A DNA stretch of 64,000 nt from an uncultured Fibrobacterota bacterium (GCA_964590225.1 CAZPWS010000011.1:4136-68135); one strand, 5' to 3'. Positions 25,489 to 58,767 are shown, counted from the stretch's first letter. Notes: generated by a model not told the origin, from the letters alone. A program made the numbers and translations.

Positions 25489-26232
25489 TTAAACAAGAGA
25501 AAAGGCGATTATTCCAAACGCAACTGCAACATTTAATGACTCAACATCCTTATGTAGCGGTATATGAATCCGCTCGTTCGAAAAAGCGGAAACGGCGGCG
25601 GAAACTCCCTCCCCTTCATTTCCCATAATTATCAGCCTATTCTTTTTTTTATCCATTTGACGGTAATCCTTACCTCTTTTAACATCCGTTACAGTAAGCA
25701 TAAAGTTTTTCTGTTTTAACCGAGGTAAAAGAGTTCCGGATGTGTCCTCAATTAAATCAAGGTTAGCAAAAGCGCCAGCTGTCGATCGAATTACTTTAGG
25801 ATTGAAAAAATCAACCGTCCCTTTTCCTGCTATAACATTCCTAAACCCAGCCGCCGCCGCAGATCGGATGATTGCACCAACATTACCTGGGTCCTGTACG
25901 CCATCAAGATAAACCGAATTGCCGCCCGTTACAACCGTATCGGCCTTAATATCGGTAACGCCTACTGCAAGTATCCCCTGCGAGTTTTCTGTTTCGACTA
26001 AATTGTCAATATTTCGCACCTGCACAAACCGTACCTCAACCCCTAATCTACGGGCACCAATTGCAATATTACTATACTTGGCTGACTGAGTTTCGTCAAT
26101 TAGTATCTCCTTTATGGGAAATTTCATATCGATGCAATGAGCGATAATAGAAGGCCCTTCTATCAAAAAAAGATGGTATTTATCGCGATATTTTTTGTGG
26201 GATAACGATGCTATAACTTTTTCAGACAACAT
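25489..26232 (-). CDS. TrmH/SpoU-family RNA 2'-O-methyltransferase (RlmB-like)
   Basis: SPOUT motifs (LDGVQDPGNVGAIIRSAAAAGF ... IMGNEGEGVS ... IPLHKDVESLNVAVAFGI). Confidence 0.75.
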   Translation of the reverse strand: MLSEKVIASLSHKKYRDKYHLFLIEGPSIIAHCIDMKFPIKEILIDETQSAKYSNIAIGARRLGVEVRFVQVRNIDNLVETENSQGILAVGVTDIKADTVVTGGNSVYLDGVQDPGNVGAIIRSAAAAGFRNVIAGKGTVDFFNPKVIRSTAGAFANLDLIEDTSGTLLPRLKQKNFMLTVTDVKRGKDYRQMDKKKNRLIIMGNEGEGVSAAVSAFSNERIHIPLHKDVESLNVAVAFGIIAFSLV

Positions 26233-28198: not shown

Positions 28199-28271
28199 GG
28201 GGTTTTAGCTCAGTTGGTAGAGCACAACGCTGGCAGCGTTGGGGTCAACGGTTCGACTCCGTTAAGCTCCA
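28199..28271 (+). tRNA. tRNA-Ala (anticodon GGC)
   Basis: 73 nt cloverleaf with anticodon loop CTGGCAG. The acceptor stem carries the G3:U70 wobble pair that is the AlaRS identity element. T-loop GGTTCGACTCC. Confidence 0.85.
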
Positions 28272-28282
28272 CAAAAATATAA

Positions 28283-28318
28283 GAGATTCCGCTTCAAAAA
28301 GCTGGGTCTCTTTTTTAT
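28283..28318 (+). terminator. Weak stem-loop plus T-run downstream of tRNA-Ala
   Basis: CCGCTTcaaaAAGCtGG imperfect hairpin followed by TCTCTTTTTTATTTT. Confidence 0.35.
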
Positions 28319-28327
28319 TTTATACCT

Positions 28328-30283
28328 ATGGCACTATTTAGCACTATGCTGCCAAAGGCAGCCCTTTCCACTCTTGTTGACCGTTTTCCGGATGGCCTGG
28401 CGATTTTTCTGCACGAAAACAATACCCCCATTTATGTTAATGACGCTTTCGCAGCCTTACTATGCCTATCAAAAGAAGCACTTCTAAGCGGCGACGCAAG
28501 GCTCCCCTTTGCAATACCGCAAAATGGAACCCAGCATATCGATTTTAGAAGTCCACTTCGAAGCATAACTCTTGACTGTAAGGTTTTTAACATTAAGCAT
28601 GAAAACTTCAATTTTAGGGCTATCACCATAAGGGATGTTACGGATGTCGTTTACAAGGAAAACATGCTGAAGGAAAAAGAGGAAAGACTCAGACTTGCTT
28701 TTCAGGGTGCACAAAACGGAATATGGGACTGGGACTTACGAACCGGCAAAATGCATTTTTCGCCTGAGTGGAAGATTATGATAGGTTGCGCGGAAAACGA
28801 AGTTTCAGACCATCCGGATGCATGGTTTAAACGAGTTCATGACATGGATATGCCGGTTCTTCAAAATGCCATACAGGAGCATCTCCGCGGTAAAACACAG
28901 CATTTCAAGTGTCAATACAGAATTCTCCACAAAGATTTCTCCTATAAATGGATGCTTTGCAGTGGCGCCGCAATTAACGGACCCGATAACCGACCGGCAC
29001 GGCTTACAGGTGTCCAAGTTGATATTACCTCACAAAAAGAAAATGAAACAAGGCTCAAGGAAGCACTTGATGACTTGCAATTAGCACTCACATCCGAAAG
29101 GCTCCTGCTTCAAGAGCTTGATCGAAAAAACAAGGAATTAACTGAGCTGTCCATTACTGATGGTTTAACTAAACTTTACAATCATAGATTTCTTCAGGAA
29201 AGATTTGATTTTGAATTCGGTAAAGCAAGACGCTATGGTCAGGTACTATCATGCCTTTTAATAGATATTGACCATTTTAAAAACATAAACGATACATACG
29301 GCCACCAGTTCGGCGATTGCGTACTACGAGATTTATCGCGACTACTCAAAGAAAATTCCCGCGAATCGGATATTTGTGGAAGATATGGAGGCGAAGAGTT
29401 TATGGTTGTATCGTCAATATCTATTGACGACGCGCTGAAATTCGCGCAAAAACTTCACGATGCTGTAGCCTCTTACCCATTTTCTGACGGTACAACAACT
29501 ATTAAGGTTACAATAAGTATCGGCGTTACAGATTATAAAAACGATATAAAAACAAAGCAGGAAATGATTGAGCGGGCAGACAACGCTCTTTATCAAGCCA
29601 AGCACGAAGGGCGTAACACCGTGCGACAATGGAAGGAAAGAAATGACAACGACGACAAAACTATGGACCCCGATGCAATAGAAGGTTTGCGTAACAGTTT
29701 TAACAACCTGACTGAAAAAATGCGTACAACCTACATAGAGTCAACAAACGCACTGGTTAATGCCATAGATGCGAAAGATCACTACACCATGGAACACTCG
29801 CAAAATGTCGCCAATTATGCTGTCGCTCTTGCGAAAGAAATTCACTTGCCAGATAAAACTATCGAGACCATAAAGAACGCCGCCCTACTGCATGATGTTG
29901 GTAAAATTGGAATAGCACAGGAAATACTTCTTAAAAACGGACCTCTTACAAAGGAAGAATTTGAAGTAATGAAACGGCATCCTGTAATTGGTGTCAATAT
30001 TCTTAAAGATGTAAAATTCCTTGAGAAGGAGTTGCCAATTATCCTGCACCATCACGAAAGATTTGATGGAAAAGGATATCCACACGGTCTCAAAGCGTAC
30101 GAAATACCTCTGGGGGCAAGAATTCTCGCTGTGGTGGATGCTTACGACGCAATGACTACAGACAGGCCATACCGAAAAGCGTTATCAAATGAAATTGCTA
30201 TTGAGGAGCTTAGGAAAGGGGCTGGCACCCAGTTTTCAGAAGAGCTAATTGATGCTTTCATAAGAATTATCCGAACTTCATAA
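28328..30283 (+). CDS. PAS-GGDEF-HD-GYP composite c-di-GMP turnover protein
   Basis: PAS-like region (WDWDLRTGKMHFSPEWK), intact GGDEF A-site (RYGGEEFMVV), and an HD-GYP domain (HSQNVANYAVALA ... LLHDVGKIG ... HHERFDGKGYP). Confidence 0.85.
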   Translation: MALFSTMLPKAALSTLVDRFPDGLAIFLHENNTPIYVNDAFAALLCLSKEALLSGDARLPFAIPQNGTQHIDFRSPLRSITLDCKVFNIKHENFNFRAITIRDVTDVVYKENMLKEKEERLRLAFQGAQNGIWDWDLRTGKMHFSPEWKIMIGCAENEVSDHPDAWFKRVHDMDMPVLQNAIQEHLRGKTQHFKCQYRILHKDFSYKWMLCSGAAINGPDNRPARLTGVQVDITSQKENETRLKEALDDLQLALTSERLLLQELDRKNKELTELSITDGLTKLYNHRFLQERFDFEFGKARRYGQVLSCLLIDIDHFKNINDTYGHQFGDCVLRDLSRLLKENSRESDICGRYGGEEFMVVSSISIDDALKFAQKLHDAVASYPFSDGTTTIKVTISIGVTDYKNDIKTKQEMIERADNALYQAKHEGRNTVRQWKERNDNDDKTMDPDAIEGLRNSFNNLTEKMRTTYIESTNALVNAIDAKDHYTMEHSQNVANYAVALAKEIHLPDKTIETIKNAALLHDVGKIGIAQEILLKNGPLTKEEFEVMKRHPVIGVNILKDVKFLEKELPIILHHHERFDGKGYPHGLKAYEIPLGARILAVVDAYDAMTTDRPYRKALSNEIAIEELRKGAGTQFSEELIDAFIRIIRTS

Positions 30284-31143
30284 TGTATATTACCAGTATG
30301 AAGAAGTTTTATTTGATATTGCCATTTCTTCTTTCTGTGATCGGGTGTTCCGGCAGGGGTAAGGAGCTAAAATTTTCCTTTGCGGTTCCCGATACTGTCC
30401 GATATAAAGTCCTTTCTCAGGCAAGCTCACGAACCACTACAGCTTCTTCCACAACTGCCCATTCAACAAGAATCGAAATGACTGTATCGTATTTTGTAAA
30501 AGAACAGCTTGCTAACGGCGACAAAAGGCTACAATTTTCATACGATGATATTAGTTACGAAAATTCACAGGCCGATAAGCATAATACCGATTCCATTATT
30601 AAGGAATTAAAAAGCACACCAATAACTGTAACAATGTCTCCATACGGGGATATTGCCGACGCTACTGGATACGAACAGATACCACGGTTTATGGCGGAAG
30701 ATTTTAACATTTTTACTCTCCTTCTTAAGGCTCTGCCCGTATTTCCTCGTTCGCCTGTACAACCGGGAGCGAAATGGGAAAGGGAACAGGAATATCCAAT
30801 CGAGAATGGCCTTATAAAAGGAAGAATGCTTGTATATAAAAGATTTACACTTATCGATTCTTCCGTGAATGAGAATCCCTTTCTTTCGCTTGTTTCAACA
30901 GACATTTCAATGCGATTTGATGTTCCTGATAATGAAAATTTCTCTATACAACGGGACGGTCAGGAAGAACTTGGCCTTAATGGCCGTGGCGAAATTCGTT
31001 TCGACAGCGACAGAGGCATGGTAACAGATGCAAGAGCGGCCGTATTCGGAAAAATGATAATTGGACTTAAGCATCCAATCACCAAAGAGTCCATTTTAAC
31101 AAAAGTGGAAATTGCTCAAAGTATCCAGGTCTATGAACCATGA
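30283..31143 (+). CDS. Lipoprotein (286 aa), function unknown. The real start is probably the internal ATG at 30298.
   Basis: MKKFYLILPFLLSVIGC has a signal peptide plus lipobox Cys. There is a 1 nt stop/start overlap with the upstream gene. Confidence 0.6.
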   Translation: MYITSMKKFYLILPFLLSVIGCSGRGKELKFSFAVPDTVRYKVLSQASSRTTTASSTTAHSTRIEMTVSYFVKEQLANGDKRLQFSYDDISYENSQADKHNTDSIIKELKSTPITVTMSPYGDIADATGYEQIPRFMAEDFNIFTLLLKALPVFPRSPVQPGAKWEREQEYPIENGLIKGRMLVYKRFTLIDSSVNENPFLSLVSTDISMRFDVPDNENFSIQRDGQEELGLNGRGEIRFDSDRGMVTDARAAVFGKMIIGLKHPITKESILTKVEIAQSIQVYEP

Positions 31144-31865
31144 AAACAAACACTATGGCTATTTCTACTATTGTAATTGTTTGTTTTCTTTTCCACTCCT
31201 TGCAAGCTATTAGCATAAGCGGCACACTGGAAAAAAACACTACATGGTCTTCCGCCGACAACCCTATTATTATTACGGGCAACATTGAAATTCCAGACTC
31301 GGTTGCACTAAAAATCAAGAAGGGAACGATAATTCGCTTCGACGGTTACTATCGTTTACTTGTTCGTGGTTCTTTAGAGGCTGATGGCGAGGCAGGCAGC
31401 GAAGTTGAATTTTCTTCAAATAAAGAGAAACCCTCTGCAAGCGACTGGGAAGGCATAATTTTCTACGGAGAAAAAAGCGGTGGTTACCTAAAGTATTGCA
31501 AGATTCGGCACGCATACAGAAATTTTGTTTGGAAATCTTCGCCCTTTATTCAGTCCTGCACCTTTATAATGAACAATTATGCGATATACTGTTCATATTC
31601 TAAATCTGCTAAGATTATTGACAACTCATTTACAAAAAATAACTTTGCTATCTATTGTGACTATTCAAGTCCGGTAATACAAAAAAACACTATTACCGAT
31701 AACTCTTACGGCATTTACTGTGTTCTCTCATCCGCGCCAATTGTTGGTGAAAATAGAATTGCGGCCAATACAGAGAAAGATATTTACATGGACGATAGTT
31801 TGGGGAAAAATGGTGCAGAAAATGTAAACAACCATGTTTGGGATTTGATGAAAGGTCTTTTTTAA
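31140..31865 (+). CDS. Exported right-handed parallel beta-helix repeat protein (241 aa)
   Basis: Signal peptide. Repeated PbH1-like units (NNYAIYCSYS / NNFAIYCDYS / NSYGIYCVLS). Overlaps the upstream stop (ATGA). Confidence 0.65.
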   Translation: MKTNTMAISTIVIVCFLFHSLQAISISGTLEKNTTWSSADNPIIITGNIEIPDSVALKIKKGTIIRFDGYYRLLVRGSLEADGEAGSEVEFSSNKEKPSASDWEGIIFYGEKSGGYLKYCKIRHAYRNFVWKSSPFIQSCTFIMNNYAIYCSYSKSAKIIDNSFTKNNFAIYCDYSSPVIQKNTITDNSYGIYCVLSSAPIVGENRIAANTEKDIYMDDSLGKNGAENVNNHVWDLMKGLF

Positions 31866-31867
31866 TT

Positions 31868-33073
31868 ATGGCAAAAACACACCCTGGATTCGATCAAGTA
31901 GCGAAAGGTTATCTTTTTCCCGAAATCGGTCGGCGTGTCAGAGCGTATGCTTCGGCAAATCCAAAAGCGAAGATAATGCGACTTGGCATCGGGGACACAA
32001 CACAACCACTACCTTCCATTGTTATAGCAGGGCTCCTTAACGGTGTTAATAAACTCGCAAAGATTGAAACTTATACCGGTTATCAGGACGACAGTTCCGG
32101 CATCCCATCTCTTAAAAATGCCCTTAAGACACGATATCAGAAATTAGGAGTAACCCTTGACCTTGACGATATCTTTGTTAGCGATGGAGCTAAGTCCGAT
32201 TCTGCCAATATCCAGTCGATATTCGATATAAGCAATATAGTGGCCTTTCAAGATCCGGCTTACCCTGTATATGTCGATAGCAACATAATGGCGGGCCGAA
32301 ATAAAAACAACTTCGTTTATATGCCTTGCTCAGAAGAAAACGGCTTTTTCCCTGCCATACCTAATGAAAAGGTTGACATTATTTACCTGTGTAGTCCCAA
32401 CAACCCAACGGGTGGAGTAGCAACCAAAGAACAGCTTAAAAGTTTTGTGAACTACGCTATTGAACAGAAAGCGGTTATTATTTTTGACGCTGCATACAGT
32501 GCATATATTTCCGATCCACTACTCCCCCGCTCAATTTATGAGATACCAGAGGCTAAAAAGTGTGCAATTGAAATAAACAGCTTTTCAAAAGAGGCAGGTT
32601 TCACAGGTGTCCGTTTGGGCTGGACAATTGTACCCAAGGCAATTGTGTGCGAAGATGGCGAAGAAGGAAAGCTGAACAGGCTTTGGACTAGAAGGCAAAA
32701 CACTATGTTCAATGGTGCATCTAATATAGTTCAAGACGGCGGCATAGCCGTTTTGTCCGATGCCGGACAAAAAGAGTGTAACGAAGTTATCGCTTACTAT
32801 ATGGAAAACGCAAAACTGATCCTTAATGGCGTAAAAGAAAAGGGGCTCGTTGCCTTTGGTGGTATAAACGCCCCATATATCTGGATGAAAACTCCAAATG
32901 GAATGGCATCGTGGGACTTCTTTGATAAACTATTGAACGAGGCTCATGTTGTCGGTACACCCGGTAGCGGTTTCGGCGCAAGCGGAGAGGGATATTTTCG
33001 TCTGAGTGCCTTTGGTATTAGGGAGAATGTTATTGCGGCAATTGACTCTATAAACAAAAATCTTAAATTATGA
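31868..33073 (+). CDS. dapL: LL-diaminopimelate aminotransferase
   Basis: AKGYLFPEIGRRV N-terminal hallmark of DapL and a fold-type I PLP aminotransferase (SFSKEAGFTGVRLGW carries the PLP Lys). The ORF track starts at 31838. The ATG at 31868 is 2 nt after the upstream stop and fits better. Confidence 0.8.
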   Translation: MAKTHPGFDQVAKGYLFPEIGRRVRAYASANPKAKIMRLGIGDTTQPLPSIVIAGLLNGVNKLAKIETYTGYQDDSSGIPSLKNALKTRYQKLGVTLDLDDIFVSDGAKSDSANIQSIFDISNIVAFQDPAYPVYVDSNIMAGRNKNNFVYMPCSEENGFFPAIPNEKVDIIYLCSPNNPTGGVATKEQLKSFVNYAIEQKAVIIFDAAYSAYISDPLLPRSIYEIPEAKKCAIEINSFSKEAGFTGVRLGWTIVPKAIVCEDGEEGKLNRLWTRRQNTMFNGASNIVQDGGIAVLSDAGQKECNEVIAYYMENAKLILNGVKEKGLVAFGGINAPYIWMKTPNGMASWDFFDKLLNEAHVVGTPGSGFGASGEGYFRLSAFGIRENVIAAIDSINKNLKL

Positions 33074-33291
33074 TAAACGAACAGTCGGTAGAGGAATTTT
33101 CCTCCATTCTTCATGATCTCAACAACATTATTAATACCCTCAACGGCTATGCCGAACTGCTAATCGAAGCCTCAAAGCAGAATAGTCAGGATGAGGTGCA
33201 ACTCTATAAAGAAAAGATAGTAGCAACAGTAATTAACAAGCTACCTCTTGCAAAAAGCATTGCTCAACGGATGCAACAGTTAGAAATTTAA
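33070..33291 (+). CDS. 73 aa protein with a HisKA-like H-box (phosphoacceptor/dimerisation helix only)
   Basis: FSSILHDLNNIINTLNGYAELL resembles the histidine-kinase H-box HDLNNxL. ATGA overlap with the dapL stop. Confidence 0.45.
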   Translation: MINEQSVEEFSSILHDLNNIINTLNGYAELLIEASKQNSQDEVQLYKEKIVATVINKLPLAKSIAQRMQQLEI

Positions 33292-33311
33292 TCTTTGGGA
33301 TACTAAAAACT

Positions 33312-34247
33312 ATGAAAAGAAAAGATCTCCTTACCCTATTAGACTATTCGGAGCAGGAAATAATAAACATTATAAGAATGGCAGCATCACTCAAAAAAGA
33401 GCTTAAAGAAAAAAAATTTCCCAAACCACTGAACAATAAAACAGTTGCGCTAATATTTGAGAAACCTTCACTGCGGACACATGCTACATTCGAAACTGGC
33501 ATTGTACAGCTTGGTGGCCACGCACTCTATCTGCCTCCTTCAAATATCAAGATAGGCATTAGAGAGAGCGTAGTGGATGTGGCAAAGAATCTTGAAAGGT
33601 GGGTGGACGGTATAGTTATTAGAACATTTTCGCAAAAACTTGTTGAAAATTTGGCGATTGCCTCTTCTATACCTGTAATTAACGCCCTTACCGATGAAGC
33701 CCACCCATGCCAAGCGCTTGCGACAGGCCTTACAATCAAAGAGCATTTTGGCAAATTCGACAAACTAAAGGTTGCTTTTGTTGGCGATGGAAACAATGTG
33801 GCATCATCTCTCCTAATTATGTGCGCAAAACTTGGTATGAACTGCGTACATGTCGGACCGCCAAGGTACCAGCTCCCCTCCAACTATCTTGCAATAATAA
33901 CTGAACTTTCTAAAAAGAAAAAAAGAACCTTTGAGTACAGCCAAGACATTAAGAGTGTAGCGAAAGCTGACCTCATATATACCGATGTCTGGACAAGTAT
34001 GGGCCAAGAAGCCGAATCTGCCCGAAGATTGAAAATTTTCCGAAAATATCAGGTAAATAGCGCCTTAATGGAGATTGCAGGACCGCAAGCCTTATTTTCA
34101 CACTGCCTACCTGCGCACAGAGGTGAAGAAGTTACCGCCGATGTGCTTGATTCCAATAAGTCAATAGCTCTTGACGAAGCAGAAAACAGGCTGCATGTTC
34201 AGAAAAGCGTCCTTACGATGCTTCTGGCAAATAACCACAAACGATAA
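33312..34247 (+). CDS. Ornithine carbamoyltransferase-family enzyme (possibly N-acyl-ornithine carbamoyltransferase, argF')
   Basis: Carbamoyl-phosphate site KPSLRTHATFE (SxRT) and the OTC-type HCLPAHRGEE motif. 311 aa. Confidence 0.75.
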   Translation: MKRKDLLTLLDYSEQEIINIIRMAASLKKELKEKKFPKPLNNKTVALIFEKPSLRTHATFETGIVQLGGHALYLPPSNIKIGIRESVVDVAKNLERWVDGIVIRTFSQKLVENLAIASSIPVINALTDEAHPCQALATGLTIKEHFGKFDKLKVAFVGDGNNVASSLLIMCAKLGMNCVHVGPPRYQLPSNYLAIITELSKKKKRTFEYSQDIKSVAKADLIYTDVWTSMGQEAESARRLKIFRKYQVNSALMEIAGPQALFSHCLPAHRGEEVTADVLDSNKSIALDEAENRLHVQKSVLTMLLANNHKR

Positions 34248-34253
34248 CAGTTA

Positions 34254-35540
34254 TTAGTTTACAGTTATAGCCTTACCCTGTCCTCTATAAAGGTCAAGTT
34301 CACCTTCTAACTCGATTTTTATTACAGTTGCGTATTTGTCTATCTCAGATTCTGGTATGTTTATCCATAGCACACCAGGGATGGGAATTTTCATCCAAGG
34401 CGCTCCTCCAATCATTTTATAATCGAGTTCTCTCCCACTCTTAAGAGCGGAAATCCGCTTAATTCTATTATTGATACCCTTTATAGCAACTGCGTCCCAC
34501 GGGCGATCGAATAGATAGGCATAAATTACAGTACGATCCTTAGATAGTGTAGTTGCCCCATAAAAATGGCCTGCTGGAAGACCGGCAACCGTACCATAAA
34601 CAGCCTCAGAATGATTTTTTATCCAGCCTCCAAGCTCTTTTAATACCGCTACTTGCTCTTCAGGAATGGTTCCATCTGGCTTTGGACCAATATCAAGCAG
34701 CAGATTTCCTCCCATACCAATGCATTCAACAAAAGTTCTTATTATTTGTCGTGGTGTCTTGTAGTTTTTATCACGAGGTTGATATCCCCATGAGTCGTTG
34801 ATGGTCATGCAAAATTCCCACTGCCCTTCCGGAGCTATTATAGGAAAAGCTTGTTCGGGAGTTTCATAGTCACCATGACCATGCATACGAGAGTTAAGAA
34901 TAACTTCCGGCTGCCAACTGTGAAGTAAGTCCCTCAACTCCTTCATTTTCCACTGCTCGGGACTCGGCCACCAGTCACCATCAAACCAAAGTAAATCTAT
35001 TTTTCCAAACTCTGTACACAATTCTTTCAACTGCGCACGATGAAATCTTAAAAACTCTTTCCATTGTGGATCATCACCGAACTTATAGGGGTGAGCTGGT
35101 GAGCAAACGGTCTCTTGGGTCCGTTTATTTACTGGTACCTGAGGTGCATATCCTGGGTGTGACCAGTCAAGTTGTGAAAAATAAAGTCCTACCTGAATCC
35201 CTTCAGCACGAATGGCATCACAATAGGGCGCAACAAGATCCCGACCAGCAGGGGAGCTTTTAACGCAATTTAGATCGCTCTCCTTCGTGTTCCAAAGAGC
35301 AAATCCATCGTGATGTTTTGCGGTTAGTACGGCATATTTCGCGCCCGCTTCCTTAAAAAGTTTTGCCCACTCATTGGGGTTATACTTTTCACCAGTAAAT
35401 CCATCCTTCTGTTTAAAGTAATCTTCGTAGGAGATTTCCCCGTTAAAAAAAGACCACGACTCAGCTATTCCGTTAACAGCATAGATTCCCCAATGGATAA
35501 AAATACCAAGCTTTGCGTCAGTGAACCACGGTTGCATCAT
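34254..35540 (-). CDS. GH29 alpha-L-fucosidase
   Basis: N-terminus WFTDAKLGIFIHWGIYAV ... AKHHDGFALWNT is typical of GH29. 428 aa. Confidence 0.8.
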   Translation of the reverse strand: MMQPWFTDAKLGIFIHWGIYAVNGIAESWSFFNGEISYEDYFKQKDGFTGEKYNPNEWAKLFKEAGAKYAVLTAKHHDGFALWNTKESDLNCVKSSPAGRDLVAPYCDAIRAEGIQVGLYFSQLDWSHPGYAPQVPVNKRTQETVCSPAHPYKFGDDPQWKEFLRFHRAQLKELCTEFGKIDLLWFDGDWWPSPEQWKMKELRDLLHSWQPEVILNSRMHGHGDYETPEQAFPIIAPEGQWEFCMTINDSWGYQPRDKNYKTPRQIIRTFVECIGMGGNLLLDIGPKPDGTIPEEQVAVLKELGGWIKNHSEAVYGTVAGLPAGHFYGATTLSKDRTVIYAYLFDRPWDAVAIKGINNRIKRISALKSGRELDYKMIGGAPWMKIPIPGVLWINIPESEIDKYATVIKIELEGELDLYRGQGKAITVN

Positions 35541-35680
35541 AACAGACCTCCTTTTTATTGTATTTCAAGTATAGTAAATCATCATGAAATTAGCTATGTA
35601 ATATGGCACTTTATTTGTGTAGATTTCTGATATGATGATATCCTATACAGGTAGTCTTAATGTAACTTATATTTCGATCA

Positions 35681-38404
35681 ATGCAGCAGTTATTTGCGCT
35701 ACTCTTTTTAATTTTCTCGTCTGTTATTCTCGGCGATAATGTTTCCGACTCTATGCTTTTATCGTACTTTGATGCATCTCTTTTGCCGGTAATGTTTATA
35801 CTTAACGCAATCCTACTGTTTATCGTATCTGCCTTTTTTATGACCTTAATAGATAGAGTTGACCGCGGCTACTTACTAATAGGCGTTCTTGTCAGCCACC
35901 TAATAATACTGTCTGCAGTAAAAGTTGCAATAACATTAAAAATATTCGTAGCCTGTCCATTTTTGTACTCTTATTCCTATTCATCTAAAATGATTTTATT
36001 TATGGTTTTCTGGACAGTTGTCAATGATATTATTGATGCACGGGATGCAAAAAGGCTGTTCCCACGAATAGCAGCAGGTGGCGTACTTGGTGGAATCACA
36101 ATCTCCTTTGTTGCGGCTATATTTGCCCCTAGCCTCGGCGCAGAAGGGCTTATGGTTGTATGGCTTGCAATTGTTAGCGCAGCTATTCCTCTCTCGTTCG
36201 CGATACATAAAAAATTCATGCCACATTTAAAGGCTACACGCGAGCCATCAACATCATCATCTCTTTTTCAAAGGCTAACAGACTTTCGTTTAATCCGCAA
36301 TGACAATCTGCTACGGCATATGGCGATTATCTATTTTCTTACCTTCATTCTCTTATACGCGAACGATTTTATATTTCTTTCAACACTTAAAGAAAATTTT
36401 CTTTCGGCGCGCAATAGCCTAATAGAAGCGATCGATCCATCGCTGATACTTGGCCTATTAAGTGGCGGCGATGCCGATGCACTGATCTTAAAAAAGGCAG
36501 TGCCAACTTTTCTTGGACTTTTTAAAGGAATAGCAAACACACTTACCTTGATAATTCAGTTTACAATAGCAGGTTTTATTCTCCGTAGTCTTGGAACCGT
36601 AAAAGCTATGCTTGTTATGCCAATTTGCCTCTTTTTTATTTATGGTTCAATGGTAGCGGTCAAGTTTCTTAATTTTCCAGATATTGCCCCACTAGGATAT
36701 CCTTTTTTCGGAAATCTTTTATTCACAACTGTACTATTTGGTCTTACCGCGAGAATCGCGCTTTTCGACGCGATTTATTCACCCAATTTCCAAATTTTCT
36801 TTTCTGCACTAAATAAAGACATTAGGGGAAGAGGAAAAATCCTTATCGAAGGCCTTATAAAACCATTCGCCATTCTTGCAGCCGGACTTTTTATACTTAC
36901 ATTTTATGAATCCCACCCTACTGGTTCGCTTATCTCTCTATTTGTTTTTTCGTTTGTACTAATCGTGATATGTCTTTTAATAAAAAAATCATATACAAAG
37001 AGCATTGCGAAATCGCTCGGAGACGGTAGAGAGGAAAGACTTGAAACCCTGCTGCACTCCGACAAAGAGAAAGAAGAAAACGCCATCCCCTTTCTTCAGG
37101 ACTTTATTGAGGACACCGATACAGAAATAGCTGAATTCGCGACTTTCACGCTAGCTTCTTTGAGTGGAGATGAACCCCCAAAGCTTCTATGGGGACGCTT
37201 CTCTCGAGCGAGTGAGTCTGAAAAAATACACTTTCTTCGTGTCATATTACCGCTAAAAGATATGCGATATATACGGCTCTATGAAGCTGGTCTTTTTAGC
37301 ATCTCGGGCGATGTAACGGCAACATCACTTGAGGCTATTATTAAATTAGGAATACCAATAGATACTTCTCGCATATCCAGATTTGTCAACAGTAATCATG
37401 ACGGAGTGAGAGCGGCAGCGGCAGTTGCACTATGGAAGAATGGTTCTGCAAGCGAAAAACAGATGCTGCAAACTGTTTTGCGTGAGGTGCTATTTGCATC
37501 CGATACATCTTATCTTAAATTTGGTATTAGAGCACTTGCAGCCTCCTCTGATTCTTCGCTCTGGCCCTTGCTTGAAATGGGATTAAATAGAGCGCTACTG
37601 CTCGGTACAGACTATACGAGAATAGCAATTGAGGCCGCCTCCTCCATAAACGATATCAGGGCATGTAGGTGGTTAATGACACAAATACCTCTTTTAGAAG
37701 GAACCGTTCTGGATCTTATTGATAAACATCTTTCACTGTATTTGCATGAGTATCCTGAACTTGTTGAAGAGGCTTTTAATAGTCCATGCGCGGTTCTGCG
37801 AATACATACCGTCAAGGCCCTTGTCAACAGGAGTAAAGACAATGACGAAGCAATTACAACTCTACTTGAGGATCTGCTTGAAACTGAAGTACAACTTATG
37901 TTTCGCTATGCGTCGTACACATCCATACTGCTGCCAGAAAGCGATGGTGAAAAACTTTTATCTGATGCTGTTAACGAGCGAAAAATATCCACCAACTTAT
38001 CGCACTTTCTAATGATATGCGCGGCACTCTATCCAAATTCGGGACTAAAAGCTGCGGCGAATAGAATTAAAAGCATAAATAAACATGTAAGAGCCTCAGC
38101 CCTTGAGCTGCTTGATAATACAACATCAATCCGTCCTGTTAAGCTTTTTCTAAAGCTTATCGACAAACCGGACCATTCGTGGATACGAGATACGCTTCGC
38201 AAGGAGTGGCGAGAGGAAACGCCAACGCGCCTTTCCGTTATCAAAACATTATCTGAAGAGTCTGATGCATGGATACGAATGCTCGCTATTTACGCTGCAT
38301 TGGAACACGACAGAGCTTTTGGAAACACAGAATTTCTCGATGCAATTGACCTAAACAGGGTAAGCGCTCTTGCACTTATGGCGGAGGTAATTGAAGATGG
38401 CTGA
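35681..38404 (+). CDS. TLC/NTT-like (ATP/ADP-translocase family) polytopic membrane domain fused to a ~450 aa cytoplasmic HEAT-repeat array
   Basis: The N-terminal ~440 aa has 10-12 predicted TM helices. WTVVNDIIDARDAKRLFPRIAAGGVLGGI parallels the TLC signature WQFANQIT..AEAKRFY..FG.LANL. The C-terminus carries repeated HEAT/PBS-lyase-like helices (VRAAAAVALWK..., LRIHTVKALVN..., VRASALELLDN..., IRMLAIYAALE...). Confidence 0.65.
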   Translation: MQQLFALLFLIFSSVILGDNVSDSMLLSYFDASLLPVMFILNAILLFIVSAFFMTLIDRVDRGYLLIGVLVSHLIILSAVKVAITLKIFVACPFLYSYSYSSKMILFMVFWTVVNDIIDARDAKRLFPRIAAGGVLGGITISFVAAIFAPSLGAEGLMVVWLAIVSAAIPLSFAIHKKFMPHLKATREPSTSSSLFQRLTDFRLIRNDNLLRHMAIIYFLTFILLYANDFIFLSTLKENFLSARNSLIEAIDPSLILGLLSGGDADALILKKAVPTFLGLFKGIANTLTLIIQFTIAGFILRSLGTVKAMLVMPICLFFIYGSMVAVKFLNFPDIAPLGYPFFGNLLFTTVLFGLTARIALFDAIYSPNFQIFFSALNKDIRGRGKILIEGLIKPFAILAAGLFILTFYESHPTGSLISLFVFSFVLIVICLLIKKSYTKSIAKSLGDGREERLETLLHSDKEKEENAIPFLQDFIEDTDTEIAEFATFTLASLSGDEPPKLLWGRFSRASESEKIHFLRVILPLKDMRYIRLYEAGLFSISGDVTATSLEAIIKLGIPIDTSRISRFVNSNHDGVRAAAAVALWKNGSASEKQMLQTVLREVLFASDTSYLKFGIRALAASSDSSLWPLLEMGLNRALLLGTDYTRIAIEAASSINDIRACRWLMTQIPLLEGTVLDLIDKHLSLYLHEYPELVEEAFNSPCAVLRIHTVKALVNRSKDNDEAITTLLEDLLETEVQLMFRYASYTSILLPESDGEKLLSDAVNERKISTNLSHFLMICAALYPNSGLKAAANRIKSINKHVRASALELLDNTTSIRPVKLFLKLIDKPDHSWIRDTLRKEWREETPTRLSVIKTLSEESDAWIRMLAIYAALEHDRAFGNTEFLDAIDLNRVSALALMAEVIEDG

Positions 38405-38861
38405 TCAAAAGATGGATGCCTTGCGGTTTCTTGAAAATGTAATTTTCCTGCGAAAACATACGCTTTTTTCCGGCTTACAAACTGGAGAACTGAGAGCCCT
38501 TGCCCTCATTGCAAAAGAAATACCCTTGATAAGTGGTGAATACGCAGTAAGAGAAGGAGATGCCGGAGATTCTTTTTTTATTGTTAAGTCCGGTACTCTT
38601 CTTGTTGTTAAGGATGAGGGAAAAATTACTCTAGCCCGCATCGAGCAAGGGGGCTGTTTTGGAGAAATGGCATTATTTGAAGATGGCACACTTCGTTCAG
38701 CAGATGTCAGGGCAGATGGGCCAAGCATACTTCTTTCCTTTCAACGGGAAGACTTTTTTGATGTGCTAAGCCGACAACCGAGAATTGCAATTGAGTTGCT
38801 TGTACTGTTCAGTCGCCGTATCAGAGAACTCAACGAAAAGCTATCTGCGGAGAAATTATAA
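38391..38861 (+). CDS. Stand-alone cyclic-nucleotide-binding (cNMP/CAP-effector) domain protein, 156 aa
   Basis: Canonical cNMP cassette FGEMALFEDGTLRSADVRA. It overlaps the upstream gene by 14 nt and the downstream gene by 1 nt. Confidence 0.7.
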   Translation: MKMADQKMDALRFLENVIFLRKHTLFSGLQTGELRALALIAKEIPLISGEYAVREGDAGDSFFIVKSGTLLVVKDEGKITLARIEQGGCFGEMALFEDGTLRSADVRADGPSILLSFQREDFFDVLSRQPRIAIELLVLFSRRIRELNEKLSAEKL

Positions 38862-40291
38862 TGGGTAAAACTGGATTTGCTACTCTATTTATAGTAGCTA
38901 CAATGTTGCTTAACTGTGTAGCAACGCGACAGGTTTCGATAACGGTTCGAATGATGCCAGAACAGGAAAAATATTTTAAAGAGAACATTCTTTCTCCTTT
39001 CGAAAAGAAGCATAAATGCCGTATTACGGTTAATTCCTACGATCACCCAGCATCATTAGATACAATGCTTATGGATGGTGCAAAAAATACTATTCTTGTT
39101 AAAGTTCCCTTTGAAGCCACCAGGCATGTCGCCGAAACCAAGCTATTAAAACCTATCGACTCTATAGTTAATACTAAGGAATTTACAGAAATTAAAAACC
39201 GTTATTTTCTGATGCAACTCGCGGCTTTTGATGGCCAAACATATTACTTTCCGAGAAAATTTGAAACAAGAATAGTTGTAGCATTAAAAAGTAAAATAAA
39301 CGAAGCTATTAGGATGTGGGGCGGACATCGAGAAGCAATTGATTCGGTACTTAAGACATACAACGGATACGGTCTTCCGAGCGGATATACTTTGGAAGCT
39401 AATCCCGATGAATGGGACTATTTCGATGTATTTGTCGCTGGCTGGTACTGGGCAAGATCTGACTCAACAAAGTTTATGCCACGAATTGCGCATCGAAGCA
39501 AAAGATACTCAGGCACATGCCAAAGACTTGTTGATAGGATTATATCGCTTGGAGGGAACAGTAGCTCAATAATGAAAATGGAAGGACCAGAAACCGATGG
39601 CTCCTTTATATGGGAAGCGCTCTATGCACGAGAAAAAATTTATCATCCATCAATGATCAAAGATGGATGGTCGGGAGTGGACATATGGAATGGTTTTAAA
39701 AAAGGCGAAGTATATCTTGCTTTCATGACACAACTTGATGCCTTTTTTATACACGGCGATGACGCAGGAAAACAGGCTGGTTATATTGCGAATCCTGACG
39801 ATCTTACTTTTGCTGTTATGCCTAAAGGTGTCTCGCTTGAATTATCATCGGAAGGAAAGCCCCTGTTTGTTGGAACAAACTCCGTATCAACTGGTGGGTG
39901 GTGGTGGGGTATCCCTGTAAATTCCCCCGACTATAAACTCTCTTTACTCCTTGCAGAGTGGATACTCGCTTCTGCCAATCAAACAACCGAAGCAAGCAAT
40001 TTTGGAATGATACCAGTGCGAAAAGATATCTTGAGTGACATCGGGTTGCTGTTTGGAAGAACATGGATTGCTGATATCTATAACACTTCACTCAAACAAC
40101 TCGTTTATAACCGTTATAATACAGTTCCTGTTCATGATAAATATGCTGAGGTAGAATCAATTTATCTTGACGCTTTCGACGACATAGTAATAAAGGGAAA
40201 CAACGGTCCAACAAACAGTGGCATGATTTCATACATTGGGAAAATATTGGAACCTTACCGATCTAAGGCATATATCATTTCAAACAAGTAA
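38861..40291 (+). CDS. Periplasmic solute-binding protein (SBP_bac_1-like) lipoprotein, with no adjacent ABC permease or ATPase
   Basis: Signal peptide with LLNC lipobox-like Cys. 476 aa. Aromatic blocks WDYFDVFVAGWYWA and GGWWWGIP are typical of family-1 sugar-binding proteins. Confidence 0.55.
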   Translation: MGKTGFATLFIVATMLLNCVATRQVSITVRMMPEQEKYFKENILSPFEKKHKCRITVNSYDHPASLDTMLMDGAKNTILVKVPFEATRHVAETKLLKPIDSIVNTKEFTEIKNRYFLMQLAAFDGQTYYFPRKFETRIVVALKSKINEAIRMWGGHREAIDSVLKTYNGYGLPSGYTLEANPDEWDYFDVFVAGWYWARSDSTKFMPRIAHRSKRYSGTCQRLVDRIISLGGNSSSIMKMEGPETDGSFIWEALYAREKIYHPSMIKDGWSGVDIWNGFKKGEVYLAFMTQLDAFFIHGDDAGKQAGYIANPDDLTFAVMPKGVSLELSSEGKPLFVGTNSVSTGGWWWGIPVNSPDYKLSLLLAEWILASANQTTEASNFGMIPVRKDILSDIGLLFGRTWIADIYNTSLKQLVYNRYNTVPVHDKYAEVESIYLDAFDDIVIKGNNGPTNSGMISYIGKILEPYRSKAYIISNK

Positions 40292-55624: not shown

Positions 55625-56656
55625 TTACTTCGTTACTTTTACGCAGAGCTGACCACAAGCCGCGTCAATATCCCTGCCCCTGCTCTTTCTAACTGTAACT
55701 ATTACAGGACTTCTTAACAATGGAGCCATAAACAAATCAACCTCTTTTTCTGTTGGTGGATGAAATTCACTTTTTCTATATGAATCGTTATAAGGAATCA
55801 GATTTATTTTTGATGGTAACCGGGAAAGCCTTTTAGCAAGAGTTGCCGCGTCACTTGGAGAGCAATTTACCCCCCCAATCATCACATATTCAAAAGTAAT
55901 CTTTTCTCCTGTTATTCTCGCATAATTTGCAGCATGTTTTAAAAGAGTATCCATATCAAGCTCATATGCGTGAGGTATCAGAGTCTTTCTAATTTCATCA
56001 TTGGGGGCGTGCAATGAAACAGCAAGCCCAACGCCTCCCCCCTCTTTTGCGAGCCGTTCGAAACCCTCAATAATTCCCACCGTGGAGACCGTTATTCGCT
56101 TTGGGCTTATGCAAAAGGCTTCTTCAGAAACAACAACTTTTATTGAAGCCAAAACCGCATCGAGATTGTCTAATGGTTCACCCATTCCCATATAGACTAT
56201 ATTTGATATTCTCTCTTTCGTCAATAATCTTTTTGCTGCAATTATCTGGTTAAGTATTTCCCCTGTTGATAGGTTTCTTTTAAAACCCATCGATGCAGTT
56301 GCGCAAAGGCGACAACCCCGGGCACAGCCAACCTGAGTTGAAATACAAAGAGTAGTCCTCTTTTCGTCTGGAATAATTACACTCTCTACCGCAAGCCCAT
56401 CCCTAAGACGGAGAAGAAATTTTTTTGCACCATCGCTGGAAACCTGCAAATTCTCAATAACCGGTTCGTCGATATCAAATGAATCCGACAATGTCAATTT
56501 GAGTGCTGAATTAAAATTTGTTATGGACTCAAAATCAGAAACACACTTATTATAAAGCCATGTAAAAAGCTGGCGCGAACGAAATGCTTTTTCTCCTTTG
56601 GTGACAAACCACTCCTCAAGTTCAGCAAGCGGCAAGTCCTTTACAGAAAGCCTCAT
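55625..56656 (-). CDS. rlmN: Radical-SAM 23S rRNA/tRNA adenine-C2 methyltransferase RlmN/Cfr family
   Basis: STQVGCARGCRLCATA radical-SAM cluster motif in an RlmN context and a C-terminal Cys. 343 aa. Confidence 0.8.
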   Translation of the reverse strand: MRLSVKDLPLAELEEWFVTKGEKAFRSRQLFTWLYNKCVSDFESITNFNSALKLTLSDSFDIDEPVIENLQVSSDGAKKFLLRLRDGLAVESVIIPDEKRTTLCISTQVGCARGCRLCATASMGFKRNLSTGEILNQIIAAKRLLTKERISNIVYMGMGEPLDNLDAVLASIKVVVSEEAFCISPKRITVSTVGIIEGFERLAKEGGGVGLAVSLHAPNDEIRKTLIPHAYELDMDTLLKHAANYARITGEKITFEYVMIGGVNCSPSDAATLAKRLSRLPSKINLIPYNDSYRKSEFHPPTEKEVDLFMAPLLRSPVIVTVRKSRGRDIDAACGQLCVKVTK

Positions 56657-57747
56657 TTTTTTTTCTGAAGCGGCACAATATCCGTTCCACCATACATTCC
56701 AATGTCATTCACCGTGCCATCATTATCGTTGTACGCTCTTCCTTTTTCACCAGCATCAATAAGGCGTGAATAGCGGGAGAGCTGCCACGGCTTGTGCGGT
56801 TTCTTCCATTCATTTTCCCTTTTTACCGAAGCGGGAATTGACTCAACAATTGTGCGAGAAAGCCGCTTATTTGCCACATCAGAATCAATTGTATCGGTGG
56901 CGACAGTAACATCCCTTCTTATACTATCAAGATGGCTATTCGAACCCATAAAAACCGGATCAATAAAAATGTTTTCACCGTCGTCGCACGCATCCTTTCT
57001 ATGATTTATCTTCCGTATAAGTCCATACTCTGGCGGACAGTCGATAAGATGTCCGTCGAAATTGCCCCAGAATGCGTTATTTTTGACAACAAAGCGGCTC
57101 AACTTGTCACCAATAATGGCCGCGAAATTATAAGCAATTATATTGCTTGACAATAACGGATTAGAATTTTTTATTGTTACCGCAGCAGCCCGATTGTATA
57201 GCACATTGTTATTTCTTATTTGCGCTATACTGCCATTTTCAACTACAATTCCCTGATGATTTGCCACTATAAGATTATTCCTAATAATTGGAGAAGAATT
57301 CAGCAGTGTTACTGCTCTAAATGCACCTCTGATATCGGTATAGGCGACTGTTCCGGTACTCGCTCTATCATCTTCAAATATAATTCCATACCAAACTGGT
57401 TCATTGGCGGCAGAGTCGGAAATATCAGGACCAATCGAAATCCTGTTATTACTTGCGCCTACGCAATCAAGCCTTCCCTTGACTATAATTGCCGGCAATT
57501 CGCTTTCCTTTGCAATTGGATGGTCAACTGCTACCGTGCATAAAGTGGATTTTTGAATACGAATAACTGTTCCGGGCATAACAGTAACTGTAGTTTTATA
57601 GGGTATCAATACTGTGCCCGTAATCGTATATGGCCCTTTTTGAGGCTGCAATAACAGATCGTTATCTATCACACCACATAATTTTACTTCTGCCCTCACA
57701 GTAGCGAAAATGAACAGCAAAAACGCAATAGCGGCAAAACGGTTCAT
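56653..57747 (-). CDS. Exported right-handed parallel beta-helix protein (364 aa), paralogous at its N-terminus to the 31140-31865 product
   Basis: Signal peptide. PbH1-like repeats (NNLIVANHQGIVVENGSIAQIRNNNVLYNRAAAVTIKNSNPLLSSNIIAYN). The shared N-terminal module is PYTITGTVLIPYKTTVTVMPGTVIRI versus NPIIITGNIEIPDSVALKIKKGTIIRF. Confidence 0.65.
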   Translation of the reverse strand: MNRFAAIAFLLFIFATVRAEVKLCGVIDNDLLLQPQKGPYTITGTVLIPYKTTVTVMPGTVIRIQKSTLCTVAVDHPIAKESELPAIIVKGRLDCVGASNNRISIGPDISDSAANEPVWYGIIFEDDRASTGTVAYTDIRGAFRAVTLLNSSPIIRNNLIVANHQGIVVENGSIAQIRNNNVLYNRAAAVTIKNSNPLLSSNIIAYNFAAIIGDKLSRFVVKNNAFWGNFDGHLIDCPPEYGLIRKINHRKDACDDGENIFIDPVFMGSNSHLDSIRRDVTVATDTIDSDVANKRLSRTIVESIPASVKRENEWKKPHKPWQLSRYSRLIDAGEKGRAYNDNDGTVNDIGMYGGTDIVPLQKKK

Positions 57748-58701
57748 CTAATCCTCCACAGATATATCATTGAGCCTAAACATTGAGGCAGCAAGAATGG
57801 CTGCCACTTTTTTTGCATTTACAGATATCTTTGCGGTCTCTTTAGTTTTGCCCTCAAGCAAAGTTTTTTCATCAAAATTCACCACTTCCATCTGAGCAAG
57901 TTCTGTCATGAAATCACCATTAGAAAACAGCTTATCAGCACCTTCACCAAGCTTTGTAAGCGATAATTCACACATGCCATCTTTCTCACCCTTGGCGACC
58001 TTCACTGCATCGTAAAGAACCCGCAGTACGGTGATTGCCTCAACAGACAATGGCTGACTGGCTTCTATAGAAGAATCCGCAATTTCTCCCCGCTTATAAC
58101 TGGCAAATAGCTCGATGGCCGATTTATCCGGAACCTGAATACGGTTATTACCGATAGCTATTAGTTTATGTCTTTCAATCTCCTTTAAAGCGGCAAGAAC
58201 ACGGTCGTGCGGTAGGCTCATTATTTCCATTATTTCGTTTTTTGCAAATTTTAGATCAAGTTCATCGTGGCCTGATAACGAATCTTCCTTTTTCCTGTTT
58301 ATCATAAGAGTCAACATAGTGGCAATGTTTGCCACAGTGTCCGAATCGAGGGAGGCTCGCACCTTTCTATCGGTATCCCTAAGGCGAGTGCATAATATCC
58401 TAATGATTGCCAAAAACCACTCGGGCATCTGGTGTGATCGCTTCTCAAACTCCTCAACAGAGATAACCGAAGCCTCAACCTCATCAATTGCTTCTACCGT
58501 TGCAGAACGGGAGCGGCCATCAAGCATGGACATTTCACCAACTATGCCACCCTTGCCAATTTCACACAAGTCAATTCGTTGTCCCTTTTCCGTCCTGTAA
58601 ACTTTCACCTTACCGCGGTGTAATAAATACATCTCACGACTTCTATCATTTTCTCTGAAAAGAACTGAACCGCTTACAAAAATTTTATTTACAGGTGCCA
58701 T
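57748..58701 (-). CDS. cNMP-binding domain protein (317 aa) with an uncharacterised C-terminal helical domain
   Basis: N-terminal cNMP cassette (LCEIGKGGIVGEMSMLDGRSRSATVEA). Its stop abuts the start of the downstream beta-helix gene (57747/57748). Confidence 0.7.
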   Translation of the reverse strand: MAPVNKIFVSGSVLFRENDRSREMYLLHRGKVKVYRTEKGQRIDLCEIGKGGIVGEMSMLDGRSRSATVEAIDEVEASVISVEEFEKRSHQMPEWFLAIIRILCTRLRDTDRKVRASLDSDTVANIATMLTLMINRKKEDSLSGHDELDLKFAKNEIMEIMSLPHDRVLAALKEIERHKLIAIGNNRIQVPDKSAIELFASYKRGEIADSSIEASQPLSVEAITVLRVLYDAVKVAKGEKDGMCELSLTKLGEGADKLFSNGDFMTELAQMEVVNFDEKTLLEGKTKETAKISVNAKKVAAILAASMFRLNDISVED

Positions 58702-58767
58702 ACTATCTGTAAAATTAAGGCATTAGCGCATAAGTTTGCAAGTTTCACCTGAAATATCTGATTATAT

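Follow-up and report, generated by a model that had tools for sequence, protein, structure and literature searches.

The window analysed here is a stretch of 64,000 nucleotides (nt) from an uncultured Fibrobacterota bacterium (GCA_964590225.1, CAZPWS010000011.1:4136-68135). Between positions 28,328 and 34,247 it carries six co-directional genes, listed in Table 1, which encode a PAS-GGDEF-HD-GYP protein (gene 1), a lipoprotein (gene 2), an exported beta-helix protein (gene 3), the LL-diaminopimelate (LL-DAP) aminotransferase DapL (gene 4), a mini protein (gene 5) and the carbamoyltransferase ArgF (gene 6). An initial annotation had described them as a single operon in which turnover of cyclic di-GMP (c-di-GMP) would be co-regulated with envelope remodelling and with the synthesis of lysine and arginine. 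Comparison with relatives points to a different explanation, to which we assign a probability of roughly 65% as a whole: the six-gene string was joined, in this lineage, from three units that have histories of their own, namely gene 1, a trio of lipoprotein, beta-helix protein and DapL (module A), and a pair of mini protein and ArgF (module B).

Table 1. Features of the six-gene locus, of its surroundings and of two relatives (aa, amino acids). Positions are those of the window unless preceded by L001 or L081, which denote the respective relative.
Feature	Position	Strand	Remarks
Gene 1, PAS-PAS-GGDEF-HD-GYP protein	28328-30283	+	651 aa; Pfam and NCBIfam
Gene 2, DUF6263-like lipoprotein, lipobox VIGC	30283-31143	+	probable true start 30298
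Gene 3, exported right-handed beta-helix protein, NosD/CASH-like	31140-31865	+	241 aa; signal peptide
Gene 4, LL-diaminopimelate aminotransferase, DapL1 form	31868-33073	+	ATG start; TIGR03542
Gene 5, mini protein, predicted free-standing DHp (HisKA-like) helical hairpin	33070-33291	+	73 aa
Gene 6, predicted ornithine carbamoyltransferase ArgF	33312-34247	+	TIGR00658
tRNA-Ala (GGC)	28199-28272	+	ARAGORN; Rfam tRNA 64.2 bits
Intrinsic-terminator-like hairpin and T-run	28281-28321	+	directly after tRNA-Ala; ends ~7 nt before ATG 28328
AT-rich element CATAATGTATATTA	30279-30297	+	TATATT at 30286-30291, 6 nt before probable lipoprotein ATG
SpoU-family RNA methyltransferase	25489-26232	-	Pfam SpoU_methylase 123 bits
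317-aa cNMP-binding (Crp-like) protein, 364-aa beta-helix paralogue, RlmN	55625-58701	-	25 kb from trio in the window
Class-I (CyaA-type) adenylate-cyclase-like genes	L001:249-2237; L081:246-2234		at gene 1 position

All six open reading frames (ORFs) and their junctions were recovered as first described, with intergenic distances of -1, -4, +2, -4 and +20 nt on the same strand and with both 4-nt overlaps formed by ATGA; the position of the string next to tRNA-Ala was confirmed as well. The 1-nt overlap of genes 1 and 2 holds for the ORF of gene 2. In the relatives, the lipoprotein starts at a Met (MKK...) which corresponds to 30298, so that its start probably lies there rather than at 30283, and the overlap then becomes a gap of 14 nt. 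Tight gene strings of mixed function are the norm in this genome: a rough gene map of the window contains 39 same-strand neighbour pairs, of which 23 are at most 20 nt apart and 10 overlap, and the genes for UbiA, a pseudouridine synthase and LspA (signal peptidase II) form an overlapping string of unrelated functions elsewhere in the window. Tight spacing alone therefore carries little functional information, and the presence of lysine and arginine enzymes beside a protein of c-di-GMP turnover does not by itself imply a shared function. At the other end of the string, argF and a convergent alpha-L-fucosidase gene end 6 nt apart (34247-34254) with no terminator in between, and the convergent transcripts must therefore overlap or terminate within the opposite gene.

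Of the trio proteins, the one encoded by gene 2 matches DUF6263 in Pfam (27.9 bits), a family for which a literature search found no paper. Its signal peptide ends in the lipobox LLSVIGC, and at least 90% of 14 homologues keep the Cys. The structural model most resembles the N-terminal beta-barrel of lipovitellin, ApoB-100 and MTP, which are eukaryotic large lipid transfer proteins. These proteins and the LolA/LolB-type carriers are its best structural matches, but the similarity is at the level of the fold only, with 10-13% identity and a model of moderate confidence (pLDDT 81). The gene 3 protein matches the Pfam families Beta_helix and NosD, and its homologues form 20 clusters at 49-100% identity. 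An exported NosD-like beta-helix protein encoded beside a lipoprotein recalls NosD/NosL, the periplasmic beta-helix protein and lipoprotein of the nitrous oxide reductase maturation system. This candidate was rejected: the NosD score of the gene 3 protein is 23.8 against a cut-off of 300, the lipoprotein is DUF6263-like rather than a NosL, and the gene context in the window, without nosZ, nosF and nosY genes, also speaks against it. The third member of the trio is an orthodox DapL1 (TIGR03542, 534.4 bits against a cut-off of 364.7).

The three genes were found together in eight lineages (the window, L001, L081/L082, L092, L093, L094/L095, L096 and L097), with the reservation that the contig of L096 stops after the beta-helix gene. 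The nearest relatives by DapL are metagenome-assembled genomes of uncultured "Fibrobacteres/Fibrobacterota" and metagenome contigs. The five deeper relatives (L092, L093, L094/L095, L096 and L097) were found via the beta-helix protein, at 49-69% identity; all of them keep the lipoprotein and beta-helix genes, with the aminotransferase gene next in all but L096. The beta-helix protein has a length of 237-241 aa throughout. Its gene always follows the lipoprotein gene directly, the two overlap by 4 nt in six of the eight lineages, and the gap to the aminotransferase gene is 1-39 nt. In L001 and L081 the beta-helix protein is conserved as strongly as DapL (78-79% identity). The trio is an old, tightly coupled unit of an uncultured Fibrobacterota-like clade. 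At 79 dapL loci of other phyla no partner genes were detected, including by hidden Markov model search, except for a weak 32-bit beta-helix match at one locus (L062). The dapL gene of Treponema was placed near other genes of DAP and lysine synthesis (PMC4176475); that of the window, in contrast, sits tightly behind the lipoprotein and beta-helix genes, with no further gene for DAP or lysine synthesis seen among the genes ~10 kb on either side.

The lineage L097 differs from the others in its aminotransferase. Its lipoprotein and beta-helix protein share 32% and 49% identity with those of the window, and the aminotransferase gene follows 13 nt further on. The encoded enzyme is only 29% identical to the DapL of the window and belongs to the DapL2 form, with 525.6 bits for NF006756 (cut-off 507) and 555 bits for TIGR03540. 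DapL1 and DapL2 are diverged forms which share ~30% identity (PMC3390587). Since DapL1 is replaced by DapL2 at the same position, this single case of a swap speaks for a selected link of the two exported proteins with DAP supply. The connection of the exported proteins with dapL, as proposed in the initial annotation, is thus conserved in eight lineages and survives a change of the form of the enzyme.

The mini protein had been taken for a mini-HisKA. The H-box is indeed present, but HisKA, the top and only Pfam match of the protein in the window, scores 22.8 bits and remains below the gathering score of 26.9. Among nine members of the mini family that were scanned, seven match HisKA (PF00512) with 19.7-23.3 bits, all below threshold, and two (P0041 and P0042) have no match. 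Alignment of nine members revealed that H15, N18, N19, T23, G26, Y27, L30, E33 and K57 are invariant. H15 is located in the H-box, which reads HDLNN in the window and H[DEA][LFY]NN across the nine members, and aligns to the histidine of the HDFNN motif of hybrid kinases. The AF2 monomer model is an antiparallel hairpin (H4-36/H40-70, pLDDT 93.5). Assignment to a known solved fold family by sequence was rejected, as profile matches in the PDB are at chance level and Foldseek returned generic hairpins; this structure search was non-specific, with HK853 found at a TM of 0.70 and an E of ~2.

Comparison with hybrid kinases gave a clearer relationship. The 17 long matches to the H-box pattern are PAS-HisKA-HATPase-REC hybrid kinases, and they aligned to the mini protein exactly at the Pfam HisKA stretch, with 33-40% identity (tblastn). 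When the mini family was aligned with the DHp segments of hybrid kinases by hhalign, both helices were covered (98.2%, E 5e-14, 52 columns), in a comparison that is partly circular because the kinase set had been retrieved with the H-box pattern. No HATPase_c domain follows the DHp stretch of the mini protein: the ORF stops right after helix 2, and argF comes next. The family is sharply set apart from the kinases (103-130 bits versus 22-33 bits) and is small, since word-indexed and exhaustive protein searches found a handful of short relatives, to which a metagenome pattern scan added two. A dN of 0.09 with saturated dS between the mini genes of L081 and L083 indicates purifying selection. A remnant of a kinase pseudogene was rejected as an explanation, because 10 lineages retain a distinct family under purifying selection. 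Judging from the alignments and the model, the mini protein is a free-standing DHp domain, homologous to the phospho-acceptor domain of kinases, and is not itself a kinase.

Two groups of known proteins invite comparison. Spo0B and ChpT are dimeric histidine phosphotransferases in which a DHp-like four-helix bundle shuttles phosphoryl groups between receiver domains. The mini protein shares with them, and with the DHp domains of HisKA kinases, a two-helix hairpin with an H-box (HDLNNIxNTLxGYxEL); both helices align to hybrid kinases, in which the H-box corresponds to the phospho-accepting helix. Unlike these proteins, it possesses no CA or CA-like domain, has a length of 73-80 aa, forms a tight family of its own and is always encoded beside argF, never beside a two-component gene. 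In the window, no two-component genes were found within ~10 kb of the mini gene. Sda and Spo0E-type regulators are small helical hairpins acting on histidine kinases or response regulators, and thus of the same size and fold class, but these regulators lack the H-box, of which all members of the mini family keep the His, and no sequence similarity was seen.

The product of gene 6, previously described as an OTC-family enzyme, could be assigned more precisely as a regular ornithine carbamoyltransferase (OTCase). Its score for TIGR00658 is 369.7 bits against a cut-off of 280.85, with 382 bits for NF001986, and its best solved relatives are all OTCases, the best being the Pyrococcus furiosus enzyme 1a1s (3e-82). 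The ornithine motifs DVWTSMG (DxxxSMG) and HCLPAHRGE (HCLP) are canonical. The carbamoyl-phosphate motif (residues 52-56), canonically STRTR, reads SLRTH in the window and in six mini-linked relatives and SLRTR in two. Acetylornithine, putrescine and YgeW-type carbamoyltransferases were rejected, as all score below their cut-offs. In all 10 lineages with gene context (the window, L001, L081, L083, L085, L098, L099, L100, L102 and L103), argF is the next gene after the mini gene, at a distance of 1-71 nt, and mini proteins that have diverged to 26% identity are still encoded beside it. The mini gene and argF are a second old pair. A literature search found nothing that links argF to a DHp-only protein.

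The order of the six genes is not conserved in the relatives. Closest to the window are L001 and L081/L082, in which DapL is 78% identical and the order of genes 2-6 is kept with small gaps; in more distant relatives, genes 2-4 are found apart from genes 5-6. The trio is not next to the mini-argF pair in L098, L099, L100, L102 and L103, and conversely neither the mini gene nor argF is present on the whole fetched contigs of L093, L094/L095 and L097, while those of L092 and L096 end too soon to show their presence or absence. The genes dapL and argF are adjacent only in the subclade of the window. The arrangement does extend beyond this strain, with five of the six genes (genes 2-6) kept together in relatives, but a GGDEF-HD-GYP gene ahead of the modules was seen in this genome only, among the relatives compared. 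The gene before the trio in L001 and L081 encodes a 662-aa class-I adenylate-cyclase-like protein (PF12633 and PF01295, both above threshold). Class-I adenylate cyclases are, as far as known, mainly gammaproteobacterial. The c-di-GMP gene does not belong to the conserved unit, and a link of c-di-GMP with the synthesis of lysine and arginine finds no support in conservation. Across the dapL neighbourhoods compared, the bond between dapL and the exported pair is kept, whereas gene 1 and the adjacency of dapL and argF are not.

The flanking genes have been reshuffled too. Downstream of argF, L001 and L081/L082 carry leuS where the window has the fucosidase gene. A block consisting of a cNMP-binding (Crp-like) gene, a 360-aa beta-helix gene and rlmN is the divergent neighbour of the trio in L092, L093, L094/L095 and L096. 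The window retains a corresponding block on its other strand, away from the trio (Table 1), and the block genes of L093 share 43%, 42% and 51% identity with it (tblastn), in agreement with Pfam. The divergent neighbour of this block in the window encodes a 524-aa protein without a Pfam match and is followed by an ACPS gene. In L097 the gene divergent from the trio encodes a Ser/Thr protein kinase (L097:2-1573, minus strand) and not a cyclic-nucleotide protein. The mini-argF pair, for its part, is divergent from a SpoU methyltransferase gene in L099, L102 and L103. The window retains the SpoU gene, which is now separated from the pair by the trio, gene 1, the tRNA and a GH2 gene. There is a tendency of the trio to adjoin tRNAs: genes for tRNAs of Ser, Arg and Gly follow dapL directly in L093 (11944-12030 and 12551-12626) and L094 (12181-12252), and in the window tRNA-Ala is found upstream of the unit. 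Further downstream in the window, another cluster linked to cyclic nucleotides consists of three overlapping genes (35681-40291), which encode a 907-aa multi-pass HEAT-repeat protein, a 154-aa cNMP-binding protein (38397-38861) and a family-8 solute-binding protein.

Gene 1 itself encodes a predicted enzyme of c-di-GMP turnover. The Pfam domains are PAS_3, GGDEF (149.7 bits) and HD_5 (131.7 bits). In the GGDEF domain, alignment to solved cyclases revealed the active-site motif RYGGEEF, the DxD/N/D residues for substrate and metal, and a RESD I-site which lies five residues upstream of RYGGEEF; the segment DIDHFKNINDTYGH aligns as well. The active-site motif, the metal and GTP residues and a Pfam score above threshold are thus those of a diguanylate cyclase. 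In an alignment of the HD-GYP domain to PmGH (4mcw), the ligands H, HD, H, HH and D are kept, as is the motif HHERFDGKGYP. Of the eight residues that we take to be the metal ligands of PmGH, in a numbering we presume to be correct, seven are kept; the eighth, E185, which is presumably a ligand of the third metal, aligns to a Tyr in gene 1, and because of this difference the metal site may be binuclear. The domain order and the intact GGEEF, RxxD I-site, HD and HHExxDGxGYP motifs are those of composite GGDEF-HD-GYP enzymes. The structural alignments hence bear out the initial annotation in that the catalytic motifs of both activities are kept, and the protein is probably able both to make and to degrade c-di-GMP. 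Horizontal acquisition of gene 1 was considered and rejected: there is no shift in composition, adjacency to a tRNA is a weak argument on its own, and the relatives have no tRNA at this position.

Sequence signals for transcription were found at two places around gene 1. The hairpin between tRNA-Ala and gene 1 folds with -15.7 kcal/mol (z -4.4), and none of 200 shuffled sequences folds as well. Despite unrelated genes upstream, the window, L001 and L081 have an invariant sequence ahead of the lipoprotein gene, TAAT(T)GTATATTA. The hexamer TATATT in this region also occurs 7-8 nt before the ATG of the unit-first genes at 35681 and 58777, with estimated coordinates of ~35668-35673 and ~58763-58768; only some genes have a GGAGG ribosome-binding site. 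This recurrence suggests that TATATT serves as a -10 box in this organism, with leaderless or very short-leader mRNAs, and that its copy at 30286-30291 is a candidate internal promoter for genes 2-6. A promoter scan at the junction of genes 1 and 2 gave TTCATA-16-CATAAT (30257-30284). Upstream of the mini gene, a near-consensus promoter is present in L102; a promoter-like match in the window (TTGACT-16/18, at 33042) is not conserved in relatives and was dismissed as probably due to chance. No convincing terminator was found within the six-gene string, no Rfam element splits it, and no riboswitch or leader RNA (lysine, c-di-GMP, T-box) was detected in or before it in Rfam, either at the gathering threshold or at E<=1. 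The description as a single operon is borne out by the co-directional, tight arrangement and the lack of a convincing internal terminator, but not by the gene order; the conserved candidate -10 box may be an internal promoter of the kind that the initial annotation had named as a refutation.

In the explanation that we favour, modules A and B are each conserved and probably meaningful, and they have been fused in one subclade only. The two exported proteins of module A would most likely act in the envelope, in a process which depends on the supply of diaminopimelate, that is, on peptidoglycan. In module B, the mini protein of 73-80 aa would most likely form a dimeric four-helix bundle with a phosphorylatable histidine and would serve hybrid histidine kinases as a minimal modulator or partner in phosphotransfer, co-expressed with OTCase. 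Module A would have been placed ahead of module B in the subclade of the window, and in this genome the PAS-GGDEF-HD-GYP gene would have come to lie ahead of module A, directly behind the putative terminator of tRNA-Ala. Genes 2-6 are probably co-transcribed from a promoter at the junction of genes 1 and 2, on a transcript which gene 1 may or may not share.

Several points weigh against this explanation. The promoters and the terminator were assigned from sequence in a phylum for which a promoter consensus is not established, and the role in the envelope or peptidoglycan was deduced from export signals, fold and gene neighbourhood. The swap from DapL1 to DapL2 was observed just once, and the majority of the contigs are short. 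The mini protein fails the Pfam threshold for HisKA, and the hhalign comparison carries the circularity mentioned above. Searches with the mini profile, moreover, retrieved no kinase from the PDB, where matches were due to chance, and none at E<=0.001 among 1.84 billion representatives. Finally, the gene before the trio is a cyclic-nucleotide gene of one of three kinds, depending on the lineage, and a link to second messengers could be real.

This last point leads to an alternative, a weaker form of the initial proposal, in which the trio is an envelope module under cyclic-nucleotide control, and different lineages keep a different second-messenger gene beside it because the trio responds to such signals in its expression or activity. 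Seven of the eight lineages would agree with it, in three states: the divergent cNMP_binding gene of L092, L093, L094/L095 and L096, the adenylate-cyclase-like gene of L001 and L081, and the GGDEF-HD-GYP gene of the window, which in addition retains the Crp-like block and the other cNMP-binding gene. We nevertheless regard it as unlikely. The pattern was spotted after the fact in genomes rich in signalling genes, L097 breaks it with its Ser/Thr kinase, and cAMP and c-di-GMP are different signals. The Crp-like protein has a weak helix-turn-helix match or none, and no CRP-type operator or c-di-GMP riboswitch was found. A single operon, in which a bifunctional c-di-GMP enzyme is co-expressed with envelope, lysine and arginine proteins and ties envelope remodelling to these pathways, would account for a string in which every junction is an overlap or a gap of at most 20 nt, both sets of catalytic motifs of gene 1 are intact, and neither a convincing terminator nor an Rfam element intervenes. 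It is nonetheless very unlikely in our judgement, given that an unrelated adenylate-cyclase-like gene replaces gene 1 in the nearest relatives with context and that dapL and argF adjoin in this subclade only. In addition, terminator-like and -10-like signals bracket gene 1, and equally tight strings of unrelated genes such as the one with UbiA are common in the window.

At the other extreme, the gene order may have no functional meaning, with dapL and argF riding in compact constitutive units and the conservation reflecting shared ancestry only. Packing is dense throughout the window, the block with rlmN is another example of a beta-helix gene mixed with a housekeeping gene, and all lineages that carry the modules come from one uncultured group. 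This, too, we hold to be improbable, for neither the trio nor the pair was broken up when the flanks on both sides were rearranged, argF has kept its neighbour down to the lowest identity within the mini family, and the non-orthologous DapL2 of L097 occupies the position of DapL1. The join of separately conserved modules accordingly remains our preferred explanation. It could be taken a step further, by regarding the mini protein as a new class of DHp-only phosphotransfer proteins or kinase modulators tied to OTCase, and the lipoprotein and beta-helix protein as an envelope machine that needs a co-expressed LL-DAP aminotransferase. The mini protein might then bind ArgF and regulate it, or it might signal the status of carbamoyl phosphate or arginine to hybrid kinases, to name two examples. 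This extended reading is decidedly speculative, and we consider it quite unlikely to hold in full.

The enzymes encoded at the locus are themselves ordinary, whereas the two gene associations appear to be undescribed in the literature searched. The DHp-only protein paired with argF would be the smallest known member of the phospho-acceptor fold of histidine kinases, and the pairing hints at a link of two-component signalling to arginine or carbamoyl-phosphate metabolism. The pair of lipoprotein and beta-helix protein, which has kept an LL-DAP aminotransferase through a swap of the form of this enzyme, offers a starting point for tests of what DUF6263 does and of how the envelope is built in an uncultured Fibrobacterota-like lineage. 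More generally, a tidy "operon" seen in one genome can be a recent mosaic.

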